This document shows positions 15,032-36,653 of a DNA stretch of 64,000 bases, one piece after another. A program made the translations under genes and the position numbers. Under the pieces are notes generated by a model. It worked only from the letters and a program-made list of their open reading frames with translations. It was not told where the DNA came from and searched no databases. This DNA is from a phage, in the NCBI GenBank assembly GCA_026683435.1, contig GCA_026683435.1_4866.1, one strand, 5' to 3'. The first letter of the stretch is position 1, and each line of letters begins with the position of its first letter.

Positions 15032-16069
15032 TTAGATAGCGACAGGCGCAGATATTTTTTCATGAGACTGATACCCAACGATCTCAAAATCTTCGAACTT
15101 ATAATCGAAGATAGAATCCGGTTTACGCTTGATGACCAGTTTCGGTAAAGGTAAAGGTTCGCGCGTCAGCTGCAATTTAGCCTGTTCCAGATGGTTGGAG
15201 TACAGATGTACGTCACCACCACTCCAAACGAAATCGCCTGGAACCATGTTAACTTGCTGAGCTACCATGTGTACGAGTAATGCGTAAGACGCGATGTTGA
15301 ACGGTGTTCCCAGGAAGAAGTCTTGGGAACGTGCATACAGCTGACATGAAAGAATGCGGCGAGGTATTTCAAGTGCGTCCATCTCAACGTGGAACACTGC
15401 GTCGTCTGCAACAGCTTCATTACTAAAGCGGGAATCGTTAAATTGATCTGGAAGGTTCTTTTCAAACCAATCAAGACGCTCGTCGATAGACAGCTCACGA
15501 GTGTAGAACTGAAAGAACGCATGACACGGAGCTAACGCCATTTGATCCAACTCACCCACATTCCATGCGCTGACAATAATACGGCGACTGTCAGGATCGT
15601 TACGCAGTTGGTCAATCACCTTAGAGATTTGGTCGTGTAGTTTCAGAAGTACACGCGCATCGAACATTTGTGAACCGTCGTCCGCGTCGCCATAATCCAC
15701 GTATCCTGCATCTTGCAGTTTCTCGAGTAAAGCTGCATTTTTCTTAGGCACCAGTTTCACATCTTTCCAACGTCTCCACTGTTCCCCATACAGGGGGCCA
15801 AGGTTCCCATTTTCATCTTGCCACTCCCGCCAAATGGTAACGCCGTTATCTTCCAGATATTTGGTGTTGGTATCGCCACTAAGGAACCACAGCAGTTCGT
15901 GAATAATAGAACGCAGGTGGAGTTTTTTAGTCGTGACTAGCGGGAAACCTTTGCGCAAATCAAAACGCATTTGGCGACCAAAGACGGAGAGCGTCCCTGT
16001 TCCAGTACGGTCGCCTTTAACATGCCCTTCATCCAGAATATTCTGCATCGTTTCAAGGTATTGCTTCAT
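15032..16069 (-). CDS. thyA: thymidylate synthase (ThyA family) with two insertions
   Basis: Motifs [25 protein letters not shown], catalytic [10 protein letters not shown], dUMP-specific [17 protein letters not shown]-terminus [20 protein letters not shown]…APVAI closely like E. coli ThyA; 345 aa versus about 264. Confidence 0.9.
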
Positions 16070-16929
16070 TAGATACTATCCCTCTTTAAGCTTTCAAATA
16101 AGTAAAGTAGATCATCATTCATCACCACATTCACACCGCCATCTGTGTAGGCTGCGGTTATTTCAGGTACACGTTCGAACAGGATACGATTCCAGCGCAC
16201 TGAGTCACGAACATATTTGTCCAGCAGTTCGTTTAACGTAGTTGCGAGTGCAGCATTGATTGTCGGCAACTCGTCGCGTTTAAACGGCCGGTGGCAATAG
16301 GGCGCAAGGTGCGTAGCGACACAACTGTCCAGGACAGTCTGGAACATCAGACAGATGGCTGGCCCAGACATCTGTCTAGAACCAGGCAATTTATCGCCAG
16401 TAAAATCATCAGACGCGGGAACAAACAACCCGATGCCGTTCATTTCACCTTTCGTGTTGATTAGCACACGATGTCCGTTGTATATTACACGGCCGAATTC
16501 CAGGCCGCAGATACGCGCCAACATTCGGTATTGTCGCGCCAAACTATGCAGCTCGGTAACGTAGCTGTGGGGCTCGTGCTCATCTTGCAATATGAGTCCA
16601 ACCACTTCGGTGGCAACAACAAAAAGGTTATGAAGACGGAACTCTTTGGTGTTTCCCGTGGTGCGGTCTTTTATAGCTGCATCCAGTGGAATAACGAAAT
16701 CTCCCACGTTCGTGTGCTTGCCGAAGTGCAACAGACCAACGAACGCCCAAAGAGAGCGACCCATGGCCGCCGCCACTTTCAAGTTGTCCATCTTCTGCAC
16801 ACCTTCAGCGACGTCGCCTAATGTGCGATAGAACTTGGCAAGCTGCTGCTCGCGTGTCCCGTATTGGTAAATCTTCGCTTGCCGGTACCAATCATCAACC
16901 GCCTGAGTCTGCTGAATAATACTAAGCAT
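16069..16929 (-). CDS. hypothetical protein
   Basis: ORF track 16069..16995; start moved to ATG 16929 (MLSIIQQ) preceded by AGGAGG. Confidence 0.7.
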
Positions 16930-31166: not shown

Positions 31167-31201
31167 TAGATAATATCTATCTCAGATTACTTTAAGAGAT
31201 G
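31167..31201. promoter_or_regulatory. conserved intergenic element, copy B
   Basis: TAGATAATATCTATCTCAGATTACTTTAAGAGATG; overlaps stop codon of upstream minus gene. Confidence 0.5.
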
Positions 31202-31927
31202 CAAGAAGCGTGCTGCCTGTTCTGTAAAGTGAAAATACTCGATGGTATCAGGTTCGTCCGAGTGAATGTCATCCGGGTCCAGCAGGTAGCCCGAGATATC
31301 ATCCGTTAAAACCCAAGCGTCTCCCTGCAGGAAAATACCCATCGGTTTTTCTACCACGGACATCACCAAGTCGGAATAAGAGTTACCTTCTGCTACCTTT
31401 ACAATGTCTTCACACGGGTCAACAATATACAGGTTGCAGAGACTACGATCTTTAAGACTGCGATGAAACATCGCTCGATCGTACCAAATAACCTGAGAAC
31501 AATTATCTTCGTCACCCGCCACATCGACCAACTCTGTCCAGAACCGATGTAAGAACCAGTTCAACGCACCGGTTATTAGCTCGTTCGGTTTCAGCATTCT
31601 AACGTGTTCGTCGTACAACTCTTCCATTGTCCAGATTCGACAATGCTCACGATCGATTGTCGGTAGCGGAGGTATTTGCGGCGGGACTTGTTTAGGCATC
31701 GGTTCATCACATCTTGCGTTGTAACGCGCAATTGTTTCGGTAACCAGCTCTGCCACAACATCACAAGCCGCTTCAAATCCCCACTTGTACAACACGTCGT
31801 AATCTTCCATGGGCGCAGCACCAAACTCACGGTTCGTTGCCATCCACGACATCCATCCGTATTGCTCCACACAGTTAATCAGACTTTGTGTGTGGAGCGT
31901 GAGCGATTCACTCACGACTCGCAACAT
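31187..31927 (-). CDS. hypothetical protein
   Basis: ORF track 31187..31987; start moved to ATG 31927 (MLRVVSESL) with RBS gaggtg. Confidence 0.65.
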   Translation of the reverse strand: MLRVVSESLTLHTQSLINCVEQYGWMSWMATNREFGAAPMEDYDVLYKWGFEAACDVVAELVTETIARYNARCDEPMPKQVPPQIPPLPTIDREHCRIWTMEELYDEHVRMLKPNELITGALNWFLHRFWTELVDVAGDEDNCSQVIWYDRAMFHRSLKDRSLCNLYIVDPCEDIVKVAEGNSYSDLVMSVVEKPMGIFLQGDAWVLTDDISGYLLDPDDIHSDEPDTIEYFHFTEQAARFLHLLK

Positions 31928-31928
31928 G

Positions 31929-33443
31929 TTACACCTCTTCTTCTCGCAGTATGCGACGGTTTGCGTAATACGCACACCACAACCCATGATACTCTTTACC
32001 GATATAGATTAAGAAGTAACGGATGTAGTATTTTTCAGGACGACACACCGCGATGTAATAACGGCCTTCGGGTTCTTTAATACGGTTGATTTCCGTACGA
32101 GACGGAATATCAATACCACGCGTCAAAATAACCGAGACAGGTCGTTTACCCATCGGAAAGTCAATCTTTAACGTTATTGACTTATCGACGCTACGGTAGT
32201 ATTCCTTAACAGGCTTACCTTTGTCATCGAACAACAAGTCAGTAATATCATTTAAGACATAACCCTTTTCCTGATGCAGAACATCACGCAACGTTGTAGC
32301 GAGTTCGTCACGAATATCCAGCGCACGGTACGACAATAAGGGCGGGCGAAGCATTCTGGAGATGGCCAGGTCTTCAAAGAACCAGACATTGGAATCTTCT
32401 CCACTGAAATGCATCTTGTCTGCCGGTAATCCATCACCTGCCACGTCAACGAACTTCTTACGTTTAACGAACTCATTGTTAACAACACCGATTGGATCAT
32501 ACTGCCGCATCTTCGGTGTATCTTTCCATGCCAGGGCGGCGTGGTTGTTTACAATCGTGTAGATGTTATCCCACGGTTGTTTAGTGAACATTACGGAAAA
32601 GTGTGCATCAGGAATCATTTTCCCAATAAACACCAAGTCGTCCTTGTTCTTTGCATGGTTGCCACCAAACATGTAATAGAAAGTTTCATCTTTCACTTTT
32701 ACAGTAGGATGGTCCTCGTTCACCAACGGATAGCAATATTTAACCGTACAAATCGGCGGATATGCCGCAAGGTTCATCCCAGCGGCGATGGGCTCGGGTT
32801 CCGCGGATGCAGGCAACTCATCCTTCGACCAGTACGGCTGATATGGAACGCCGTCGTTGGTCGCTGTGATGGCTGAACCTTTTCTAGCCAATTCGTCCGC
32901 CCGGTCGTTACCGTAGTGGCCGGAGTGTCCTTTGATTTTGATAACCTTAACACCCCGTCCTTCTTTTTTCATCTGCTGTTTGATTTCCCAGATACGAACA
33001 ATAAGTTCTTTGTTCGCCAGCGGAGTACCGTCAGCACGAACCCAACCGCGTTTATGCCAGCCGTCTATCCACTCGTTAAAAGTGTTTACAACGTAACTGG
33101 CATCCACGTAGATGATATAGTTCTTCGCGCGGAAGGGCGCGTTCTCAAACAACGTGATGAAGGCGATTAACTCGCCCACATCTGAGTAGAACTCTTTCGG
33201 AACGGGAATAACGGCGTCGACAAATTGAACGGTGTCCGGCAACTCCGGACACTTCACATCCTGCGGCACTTTTTTGTATCCAACAGTGGTAATCCGTTCT
33301 GAAACACCCGGATGGCTATAAGCCTGACTGTCTTCCAAATCTCCGTTGTTGAATAAATAACCATGAATACCAGCCCCCGAACCTTTCGGGGACTCAGTAT
33401 GACTACCATCGGTATAAATAACCGCTACGTCGACGTCTTTCAT
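31929..33443 (-). CDS. RNase HI domain fused to C-terminal domain of unknown function
   Basis: N-terminal ~190 aa carry RNase HI motifs: TDGS, ELIAF, YVDASY, WHKRGW, KGHSGHYGNDRADELA; C-terminal ~310 aa unassigned. Confidence 0.85.
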   Translation of the reverse strand: MKDVDVAVIYTDGSHTESPKGSGAGIHGYLFNNGDLEDSQAYSHPGVSERITTVGYKKVPQDVKCPELPDTVQFVDAVIPVPKEFYSDVGELIAFITLFENAPFRAKNYIIYVDASYVVNTFNEWIDGWHKRGWVRADGTPLANKELIVRIWEIKQQMKKEGRGVKVIKIKGHSGHYGNDRADELARKGSAITATNDGVPYQPYWSKDELPASAEPEPIAAGMNLAAYPPICTVKYCYPLVNEDHPTVKVKDETFYYMFGGNHAKNKDDLVFIGKMIPDAHFSVMFTKQPWDNIYTIVNNHAALAWKDTPKMRQYDPIGVVNNEFVKRKKFVDVAGDGLPADKMHFSGEDSNVWFFEDLAISRMLRPPLLSYRALDIRDELATTLRDVLHQEKGYVLNDITDLLFDDKGKPVKEYYRSVDKSITLKIDFPMGKRPVSVILTRGIDIPSRTEINRIKEPEGRYYIAVCRPEKYYIRYFLIYIGKEYHGLWCAYYANRRILREEEV

Positions 33444-34162
33444 TATTCTCCTCGCAACTGCGGTGGAATGTATTCACCTGTGCACATTTCGCGGTGGGCT
33501 TCTAACATGCGTTCGAAGCCGTACGTACGCGCAACCAGGGCCAAATGATAGATGCGTGCCGTAGAATACGCTTCCTTCGCAGCATCAAAGCTAGCGTTAT
33601 GCTCGTACGCTTCTTTGCCACGGGTCCAGTGGTGCGCTTCTGCGTGCCAGTTCGGTTCCAGACCAAACGCATATGCAATACGTTCTGCAGTCCGGTCAGA
33701 GTCCAATATAGAAAACTTGCGGTACTTGCCCGGCGGGATATCGCACTGCGCGAACGCGTTCATCAGAATTGGAGCATCGAAATCGGGACCGCGCATGGTG
33801 ATAACCATTTTCACGTTGCCCAGATCATCCAACCATTTTTTAGCCGCCCACAGTGCTTCTGGCAGTGGAGTGGTCCCAGAAAACGCTTCAATGCGTGCTT
33901 TCTCGCTCGGTGCGTATTCGGGGTCGCCTTTACCTTCCCAATAACCGACCGTTTGTGGATCGATGTAGAAGATTTCTTTTGCTTTTGCATCGTTGGGGTC
34001 GATTTTGTGGTAACATGAACCGATCATTTTCATTGTCGGAACATCGAATGCCACGTTTGCCAACGTTAAGATGTAGGCATCTGGACGTAAAGCCAGGGTC
34101 TCTAAGTCCGTCCCAACAACAACGGTGGGCGTTAAAACAGGCAGAATTTTAGGATAGGTCAT
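33443..34162 (-). CDS. DEDDh-type 3'-5' exonuclease
   Basis: Exo I motif VVGTDLETLAL, later HNASFDAAKEAY (H-x4-D); 239 aa. Confidence 0.75.
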   Translation of the reverse strand: MTYPKILPVLTPTVVVGTDLETLALRPDAYILTLANVAFDVPTMKMIGSCYHKIDPNDAKAKEIFYIDPQTVGYWEGKGDPEYAPSEKARIEAFSGTTPLPEALWAAKKWLDDLGNVKMVITMRGPDFDAPILMNAFAQCDIPPGKYRKFSILDSDRTAERIAYAFGLEPNWHAEAHHWTRGKEAYEHNASFDAAKEAYSTARIYHLALVARTYGFERMLEAHREMCTGEYIPPQLRGE

Positions 34163-34221
34163 TTCAACTCTCCACGAGATTATATATCACACTATTGACT
34201 ATTAACGTAAAAAAGGAAATC

Positions 34222-34245
34222 CCCTCTTACCCGAAGGTAAGAGGG
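34222..34245 (-). terminator. intrinsic terminator (minus strand)
   Basis: hairpin ccctcttacc-cgaa-ggtaagaggg, T-run on minus strand. Confidence 0.65.
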
Positions 34246-34250
34246 AGTTT

Positions 34251-34730
34251 TCATTGCACAAGGCAACTACTTTTGTGCCGTTCGTAGGCACGATTAAAAG
34301 ACTCTCTGTCTTCGCGATAGCTGCGAATGAGAGACTTAATCTGTCGTGACAAATCACGACTAATGTCTTGAGGGCTACGAGAACCAGGGTCGAGATATAT
34401 CCCGGAGGGTATACCATGAAGAGTGGGGCGAATAAACTCTTCACAAAGCGGTGCGGTCATCGGGGTGTGCCACCCTTTAGCTTCTGCATAGTTGTTTACT
34501 GACTTAGCGTACAGATAAACGTAATAAGCATAAGCGTTCACATCCGCAACAAACATTTTCCCTGCCAGCTTTTTCGCCTCAGGACTGTTCCCACCGTTAT
34601 ATACTGGTGGGTGTTCTAAAGGACGAAAAGGCCAATCTCCGGTTGAGGAGTAATCTGGGTCTACGTGACGGATGACCCCAGGGCATCCTGTCAACAATAG
34701 CACCAGTATCGCCACCAAAAATAACTTCAT
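34251..34730 (-). CDS. lipoprotein (candidate outer-membrane partner of upstream gene)
   Basis: N-terminus MKLFLVAILVLLLTGC has signal peptide with lipobox LTGC; 159 aa. Confidence 0.75.
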   Translation of the reverse strand: MKLFLVAILVLLLTGCPGVIRHVDPDYSSTGDWPFRPLEHPPVYNGGNSPEAKKLAGKMFVADVNAYAYYVYLYAKSVNNYAEAKGWHTPMTAPLCEEFIRPTLHGIPSGIYLDPGSRSPQDISRDLSRQIKSLIRSYREDRESFNRAYERHKSSCLVQ

Positions 34731-35273: not shown

Positions 35274-36653
35274 ATGTATGATTTACAAGGCTTTATTCAA
35301 ATAGCGGCTCTGATTGATAATGGCCCTGGCAACACCGCTCCGGTAGGTGAGTTGTCTGAGCTGTCATATTCGTTCGCTAAAAGCAAGCAGTATTTTACTA
35401 AAGAAAATCTGCAGGTGGAACTGGTTGCTTTTACTTCTAAACGTGACGAGTTGCCTATTAAGACCCCGGCCGTCTTTAGCGACCACGTTCTTACTGTTTC
35501 CCAATGGATCTACCAACAGTCTATCCTGGGCAACTTAAGAAACGACGAAGTTGAATTCCAGCGTTTGCTGTTGGGGCAATTTAATAGTGTCATCAGCGGT
35601 GTTCAGTCTGGCGCGATGATTCAGACTAACAGTAACTGGTTCCCACGTTGGGTCAGTTGGAAACTTGAAACCACAGCAGATAAAGTCGAAGACCCGTCTG
35701 ATGTAAATAACCAGATTATTCTCTGGTTTGCTGATGAAGATTTCAATCAGGACTATACTGGATTTGAAATTGAAGTCCAAATGCCGATATTACCGGTTGA
35801 TACTTTCTTGGCTGTGAAATCTGTAGTCGAAAAGGCAATGGAAGGGTTCAACCTTCCGGATCACCATAATAAGATTAACGAATTAGCTGACGGTTATCCG
35901 TACACTAGCCTGATTACTAACATCTATACTTGGCACGACCAGGAAGACTTTGACTCCACCTTACCGATACCGATGTCGGCTATCATCTACGGACGCGCGG
36001 GTCGTAACCCGAGCAGGATTAAACAAGCGTTACGTGATTACATTTTGGCAAACTCCAGTTTTACTGTGGCGTTGGGTGTCAAAGTGTTCCCAGAAATCTT
36101 TACGACCACCAAGTTCACAATTGTTCCCGGTTGGTCAATTCGTGGGATTCCAAATGAGGAAGATGTTGCGGCATTATACTCGCCGATTCTCCCATATGAT
36201 TTCTGGGTCAAAGCAATCTCCCGATTTGGGGAGTGGACTGTTCAAACCATTACGGAAAAAAATAGTGGAGCGATCTCGATTCCAACTACCGATGTAACGG
36301 ATTTACCGTCCATCTATAAATCGTTGAACGCCGTGGTTATCGCTGGCCCTGAAAACGATTCACGCAAAACGACCCTGCATGACACAATTCCTGACTACGC
36401 ATTAATCGGCACTAATAATGCGGATATTGCGAGAATGTCGAAGAAAACCACCGAGTGGTTGGATCTGTTCTTCCAGGCGTTAATTGCAGCCGAAGAGTAC
36501 CATCCGCACTCCACCCCGTTGGATATCGTGAAGCTCGTAGACGACGTTGATCCTAACGTTTACTTCTACGTCTTCGAATTCGATAACGTGGAATATCGTG
36601 TCTTGGCCCGTAAGGCCATTTGGGATGTTCCTGCGGTAGAGCCAAAAGCCTAA
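35274..36653 (+). CDS. hypothetical protein (probable virion protein)
   Basis: 459-aa ORF; plus-strand island ending in strong terminator. Confidence 0.75.
   Translation: MYDLQGFIQIAALIDNGPGNTAPVGELSELSYSFAKSKQYFTKENLQVELVAFTSKRDELPIKTPAVFSDHVLTVSQWIYQQSILGNLRNDEVEFQRLLLGQFNSVISGVQSGAMIQTNSNWFPRWVSWKLETTADKVEDPSDVNNQIILWFADEDFNQDYTGFEIEVQMPILPVDTFLAVKSVVEKAMEGFNLPDHHNKINELADGYPYTSLITNIYTWHDQEDFDSTLPIPMSAIIYGRAGRNPSRIKQALRDYILANSSFTVALGVKVFPEIFTTTKFTIVPGWSIRGIPNEEDVAALYSPILPYDFWVKAISRFGEWTVQTITEKNSGAISIPTTDVTDLPSIYKSLNAVVIAGPENDSRKTTLHDTIPDYALIGTNNADIARMSKKTTEWLDLFFQALIAAEEYHPHSTPLDIVKLVDDVDPNVYFYVFEFDNVEYRVLARKAIWDVPAVEPKA

Follow-up and report, generated by a model that had tools for sequence, protein, structure and literature searches.

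The best-described relatives of the gene treated here come from two nucleus-forming phages. ΦKZ155 (Nlp2) is encoded by a core gene of these phages and behaves as an RNase H in vitro, where it cuts RNA:DNA hybrids in their RNA strand; its essential function in ΦKZ does not depend on the catalytic Asp (PMC12571901). It enters the phage nucleus through Imp1/PicA (10.1101/2024.03.27.586873). The Goslar protein was named Rhc (RNase H-clamp) in a 2026 preprint, which describes it as the third subunit of a split DNAPN-DNAPC-Rhc polymerase, bound to DNAPC. According to the same preprint, Goslar replication needs both Rhc domains, i.e., RNase H catalysis and the DNA-binding domain, and a separable role in late transcription is attributed to R-loop resolution (PMC13648698). 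SPN3US encodes a diverged chimallin, gp244, and thus shares the biology of the nucleus-forming phages (PMC9365700).

We analyzed a gene of this kind in a phage contig (GCA_026683435.1_4866.1), of which the whole stretch of 64,000 nucleotides is called the window below. Our main reading, to which we assign a probability of about 0.85, is that this gene (rhc) codes for the Rhc orthologue, a Chimalliviridae core protein in which a competent RNase H and a diverged clamp-fold domain would serve the phage replicase. What the present analysis itself shows is the identity of the two domains, the catalytic residues, a clamp-like fold, the orthology, a conserved fusion and the shared gene order.

The rhc gene and its orthologues

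By its 98-99% identity to GenBank records, the window can be assigned to an SPN3US-like Salmonella jumbo phage (Seoulvirus). Over the 3.5 kb surrounding rhc, the identity is 97.7-99.2% with the Salmonella phages SPLA5c, SPFM and SPN3US and with Escherichia phage EC001, and the SPN3US counterpart of the gene is ACQ60_gp059, annotated as "ribonuclease." This identity to SPN3US-like phages, together with the reported gp244, places the window among the chimallin phages (PMC9365700). The gene is already known, since both its sequence (near-identical to deposited SPN3US-like genomes) and its protein family are found in the literature and databases.

The rhc product matched phrog_3265 over its full length (E 1e-189). 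By BLASTP, it aligned with PHIKZ155 along both domains (aa 5-494, E 8e-38) and with Goslar_00246 from aa 76 to 501 (E 4e-37). The latter is the sole rhc homologue across the whole Goslar genome and, because of this uniqueness, we have taken Goslar_00246 (QBO64037.1) as Goslar Rhc. The "gp246" of the Goslar papers belongs to another numbering scheme, in which it designates ChmA, and is therefore unusable for tying Goslar_00246 to Rhc; one paper gives ChmA as "gp246" and PhuZ as "gp234" (10.1101/2023.09.22.559000). Goslar gene numbers differ between sources, and it is under the GenBank locus tag Goslar_00246 that the RNase HI-clamp gene is found. Homology over both domains makes rhc the SPN3US-lineage orthologue of Rhc, ΦKZ gp155 (Nlp2) and Goslar_00246. 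With this family it shares full-length homology, the presence of RNase HI and putative clamp-derived domains in one polypeptide, and the phrog_3293 neighborhood. In every genome examined, the phrog_3293 gene lies upstream of rhc at a distance of one to three short genes, with counterparts in Goslar (Goslar_00248), ΦKZ (PHIKZ157), Derbicus, the Vibrio phage, RisingSun and the Ralstonia phage. The features of the locus are collected in Table 1.

Table 1. Coordinates of rhc, its parts and its neighbors in the window
Feature	Position	Strand	Remarks
Downstream gene, phrog_9472	31187..31927	-	Starts 1 nt past the rhc stop codon
rhc, RNase H-clamp protein, 504 aa	31929..33443	-	Single uninterrupted ORF
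Putative C-terminal clamp-derived domain, aa 230-504, two alpha/beta subdomains	31932..32756	-	
Interdomain linker, aa 195-229	32757..32861	-	Y204-W205 conserved; the residues after it are acidic, variable and modeled with low confidence
RNase HI domain, aa 1-194	32862..33443	-	Pfam, PDB sequence matches, alignment
Catalytic codons	D12 33408-33410; E91 33171-33173; D114 33102-33104; H173 32925-32927; D183 32895-32897	-	
Family-specific insertion of ~40 aa, aa 32-72, between RNase H strands 2 and 3	33228..33350	-	Gap versus E. coli RNase HI
Exonuclease/rhc junction	33441..33453	-	Shine-Dalgarno GAGGAG 33453-33448; TAATG overlap 33445-33441
Rv2179c/DexA-like DEDDh 3'-5' exonuclease, 239 aa, upstream of rhc	33443..34162	-	PF16473, phrog_255
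Terminator-like hairpin, perfect 10-11-bp GC-rich stem, T-rich tails on both strands	34221..34246	-	Consensus scan only
Virion structural protein, phrog_3293, divergent	35274..36653	+	Synteny anchor

The upstream exonuclease and the surrounding genes

The gene upstream of rhc codes for a true DEDDh exonuclease (Rv2179c/DexA type), to judge from its matches to PF16473 (E 1e-8, 35.5 bits against a cutoff of 27) and phrog_255 (E 4e-53) and from its Exo I/II/III motifs (D19/E21, D127/D129 and H188-x4-D193). Its SPN3US counterpart is gp060, annotated as "3'-5' exoribonuclease." The stop codon of the exonuclease (TAA, 33445-33443) and the start codon of rhc (ATG, 33443-33441) share one base, just as the initial annotation had described, and the GAGGAG motif is found four bases upstream. 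The hairpin on the other side of the exonuclease gene separates it from a 159-aa gene (34251-34730) and is a candidate bidirectional terminator, at which a new transcription unit comprising the exonuclease, rhc and the downstream genes probably starts. A sigma-70 promoter scan performed no better than on shuffled sequences and is uninformative for a phage with its own RNA polymerases. Given the hairpin ahead of the exonuclease and the overlap behind it, the exonuclease and rhc are probably cotranscribed and translationally coupled in the SPN3US lineage. Overlapping stop and start codons are commonplace where phage genes are packed tightly, and the gene downstream, which begins one base past the rhc stop codon, indicates that tight packing is the norm in this one. 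The PHROG match of that gene begins at residue 21 of the mechanically called ORF, and the SPN3US CDS has 741 nt, equivalent to a start at the ATG at 31927. In the mechanical ORF (31187-31987, minus strand), a start at 31987 would overlap rhc by 59 nt.

The adjacency of exonuclease and rhc, with overlap, was found in the SPN3US clade, Erwinia phage Derbicus and Vibrio phage pVp-JHP1101 (8 to 14 nt of overlap in the last two), and it persists to ca. 28% identity. ΦKZ, Goslar, RisingSun and Ralstonia RsoM3USA lack it and have small unrelated ORFs upstream instead; tblastn found no homologue of the exonuclease in Goslar, and the PF16473 gene of this phage, located ca. 100 kb away, was not picked up by BLAST with the window protein. 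The exonuclease thus lies outside the conserved Rhc module, and it should not be presumed to be part of the Rhc machine. The initial annotation had proposed a cotranslated nuclease pair on the basis of the overlap; the TAATG overlap stands; the pair as stated is not supported, since adjacency is confined to one subclade. A dedicated pair is a weak possibility within that subclade and not a property of the family.

It is rather unlikely that the exonuclease of the SPN3US, Derbicus and Vibrio phages joins the replisome as an additional partner specific to this lineage, acting together with Rhc on primers, flaps or R-loops, and that, separately, the clamp module is a portable platform (P0052, P0060 and P0053, described below). 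Less probable still is a dedicated, translationally coupled two-nuclease complex made of the exonuclease and the RNase H fusion, devoted to primers and flaps or to the degradation of host nucleic acid. The one-base overlap with a Shine-Dalgarno sequence within the exonuclease gene, the adjacency maintained down to ca. 28% identity in Derbicus and pVp-JHP1101, and the hairpin preceding the pair speak in its favor. However, such a complex would have to do without adjacency in four of the phages named above and, by BLAST, without an exonuclease homologue in Goslar; overlapping stop and start codons are the rule in the rhc operon, and the partners of Rhc reported in the preprint are DNAPN and DNAPC, with no exonuclease among them (PMC13648698).

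With Goslar_00068 as the query, no N-terminal subunit of the DNA polymerase was found in the 64-kb window. A thymidylate synthase ORF (15035-16075, minus strand) is 59% identical to that of Goslar, while other genes shared by the window and Goslar are in the 23-34% range; either strong constraint or a more recent origin, shared or host-derived, may lie behind this.

Two domains in one polypeptide

The N-terminal domain has the RNase H fold. Pfam RNase_H (PF00075) covers aa 89-190 with 78.4 bits (cutoff 25.8, E 8e-22), and PDB sequences of RNase HI and H1 matched down to E 3e-13 (phmmer). In a pairwise alignment with what we take to be the E. coli RNase HI sequence, D12, E91, D114, H173 and D183 fall on D10, E48, D70, H124 and D134, in agreement with the phmmer alignment to PDB entries. 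The WHKRGW basic handle is kept as well. All five catalytic residues are invariant among close homologues and intact in 143 of the 152 family-wide representatives (ca. 94%), which argues for selection on catalysis. The RNase HI signature read by the initial annotation is therefore real, and the misalignment of catalytic residues that it had named as a possible flaw was not found. By these matches, the domain qualifies as a genuine type-1 RNase H with correctly aligned catalytic residues and, by orthology with ΦKZ155, it would be catalytically competent, cutting the RNA strand of RNA:DNA hybrids. Inside the family-specific insertion, the structure model places a small hairpin (aa 42-51), followed by the motif T52-x2-G55-Y56, whose residues are kept in 88% (T52), 93% (G55) and 92% (Y56) of the 152 representatives. 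The linker between the domains shows indels and varying length in the homologue alignment and has a pLDDT of <50 at aa 208-217, with W205 kept in 93% of the same representatives. The insertion and W205 could provide an interdomain or polymerase contact.

The rest of the protein had been described as an unknown domain of about 310 aa. There is indeed a second domain, of ca. 300 aa, and "unknown" is superseded by its clamp-like fold and by Rhc orthology. By sequence profile (Pfam and PDB sequences) it does not pass as a clamp: aa ~200-504 gave neither a Pfam match nor a PDB sequence match, even with a 15-sequence profile, and none of 15 rhc family members matched a clamp Pfam family at E values up to 10. 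Modeled alone, aa 228-504 reached a pLDDT of 89 and a pTM of 0.88, and the structural comparison that the initial annotation had suggested matched sliding-clamp-type folds with modest scores: Hus1 (6.7 / 176), Mec3 (6.6 / 190), Rad9 (6.0 / 158), Ddc1 (5.9 / 162), the ASFV sliding clamp (5.7 / 152), RB69-type gp45 and Rad1 (both 5.2 / 151), PCNA (4.8 / 141), the bacterial beta clamp (4.7 / 146), and herpesvirus UL44 (4.4 / 149) and UL42 (4.3 / 91), with herpesvirus PF-8 and BMRF1 further down the list. With the full-length model, these clamps again gave the best fold matches outside RNase H. Foldseek against viral models (BFVD) returned "ribonuclease H" proteins of jumbo phages at the top, followed by a phage beta-clamp (E 1.4e-3). 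Since the scores are modest, we call the domain clamp-derived, with what seems to be a strongly diverged PCNA/9-1-1-like fold, and do not call it a sliding clamp. The identification is drawn from fold comparison and the literature only, and the fold result agrees with the published description of Rhc.

Across the family, the most conserved C-terminal motifs are D399-I400-T401 and D445-x-P447-x-R449. Among close homologues, the domain has numerous invariant basic residues (K265, K267, K275, R328, K329, R366 and R373, and further on R378, K410, K413, R417, R449, R454 and R497) that would fit a nucleic-acid-binding surface. There is a slim chance that the C-terminal domain is instead chiefly a protein-protein or nuclear-import adaptor and no relic of a DNA-binding clamp, with the RNase H domain acting as a sensor and not as an enzyme. 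The catalytic residues maintained in ca. 94% of the family and the abundance of invariant Arg and Lys, as expected of a surface that binds nucleic acids, run against it, as does the need for both RNase H catalysis and the DNA-binding domain that the preprint describes for Goslar (PMC13648698).

The fusion itself, read by the initial annotation within one ORF, is kept by relatives, including ΦKZ and Goslar. A word-indexed search returned 32 matches, close relatives only, and all 26 close homologues had 503 to 531 aa with PF00075. An exhaustive profile search of 1.84 billion representatives recovered 520 rhc-family proteins; nearly all the full-length proteins among the 150 matches listed were of 470 to 585 aa with the clamp-like domain at the C terminus, and PF00075 preceded this domain in eight of 10 distant members sampled. 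With the C-terminal domain alone, tblastn hit 219 phage records. Among the matches listed, all genomes were >200 kb, and they included PhiPA3, PA7 and other ΦKZ-like phages, RisingSun, PCH45 and Ralstonia phages. The RNase H-clamp fusion is, from this distribution, ancient and stable. As it recurs throughout the family, in independent genomes and metagenomes, in all 26 close homologues and in ΦKZ and Goslar, and as the ORF is uninterrupted in the window, the chance that two genes were joined by a sequencing frameshift (the other flaw considered by the initial annotation) or a gene-calling error is negligible, and the gene found in pieces in some SPFM phage records is an exception among near-identical genomes.

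In several genomes of Salmonella SPFM phages (SPFM1, SPFM7, SPFM9, SPFM12, SPFM14, SPFM15 and SPFM20), rhc appears in five to six tblastn pieces or as odd-length "hypothetical proteins" (P0024, P0026, P0027, P0029, P0031 and P0032; hits H39 and H40), while sister genomes are intact; these broken copies are most likely assembly or sequencing errors in the records. A metagenomic sublineage (P0052, P0053 and P0060; loci L016 533-2290 and L017 457-2214) has kept the clamp-like C-terminal domain (31% identity, E 6e-24 in P0053) and the "GAHGY ... TPxGY" N-terminal landmarks. The catalytic residues of its RNase H-like domain are lost, and a scan of two members, P0053 and P0060, gave no PF00075 match; P0053 carries an additional N-terminal macro domain. 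The loss of these residues recalls the finding in ΦKZ that the protein can do without catalysis. Two other proteins, P0153 (675 aa) and P0157 (668 aa), have an N-terminal extension of ca. 170 aa with an I-TevI-type DNA-binding domain before the RNase H. This is either what is left of a homing endonuclease, fused to rhc, or two genes merged by gene calling.

Proposed role and comparison with known systems

If rhc is the Rhc orthologue, DNA binding, polymerase binding, nuclear localization and essentiality would carry over from the published orthologues. Its product would enter the phage nucleus, where the clamp-like domain would bind DNA and the C-terminal subunit of the split family-B DNA polymerase, and the tethered RNase H would remove RNA primers (Okazaki) and R-loops, both at the fork and on transcribed DNA. 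It would thus be a third replicase subunit, contributing processivity and primer processing inside the nucleus, and its second role would be to keep transcription free of R-loops. For the SPN3US lineage, we infer the replicase-subunit role from the Goslar work. A gene like this one would covalently couple the removal of primers and R-loops to an accessory domain of the polymerase with a clamp-like fold. Publications on ΦKZ (2025) and Goslar (2026) show that related phages cannot replicate inside the phage nucleus without an Rhc-type protein. The "Ribonuclease H" of Seoulvirus annotations would be better named "Rhc, RNase H-clamp DNA polymerase accessory subunit."

Goslar Rhc has the same two-domain architecture and nearly the same length (508 versus 504 aa), it also adjoins a divergent virion structural gene, and both phages belong to the chimallin-encoding jumbo group. 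However, it is just 26% identical to the window protein, and there is no exonuclease gene upstream of it. DNAPC binding and the roles in replication and R-loop-related transcription have been shown for Goslar only, and a clamp-type role, keeping the DNA polymerase on DNA, is reported for Rhc in the preprint (PMC13648698). ΦKZ gp155 (Nlp2), grouped with ΦPA3 gp176, has the same RNase HI insertion, C-terminal domain and synteny, with 26% identity and 482 aa; its D102 is equivalent to D114 here, and, as mentioned, the essential function in ΦKZ persists when the catalytic Asp is lost (PMC12571901).

The catalytic domains of E. coli RNase HI and human RNase H1 are without the ca. 40-aa insertion of the phage domain between strands 2 and 3 and, unlike cellular RNase HI, the phage RNase H is covalently joined to a clamp-like domain of 275 aa. 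Cellular RNase HI is a single-domain protein or has an N-terminal hybrid-binding domain. To sliding clamps and processivity factors (9-1-1, PCNA, T4/RB69 gp45, the ASFV clamp and UL42/UL44), the likeness lies in the two-subdomain alpha/beta clamp fold predicted by the model. The nearest working analogy is herpesvirus UL42, which has a clamp fold and attaches directly to DNA and to its polymerase with neither ring closure nor loader, and the noncovalent counterpart of the RNase H-clamp fusion is found in PCNA-bound RNase H2 and FEN1.
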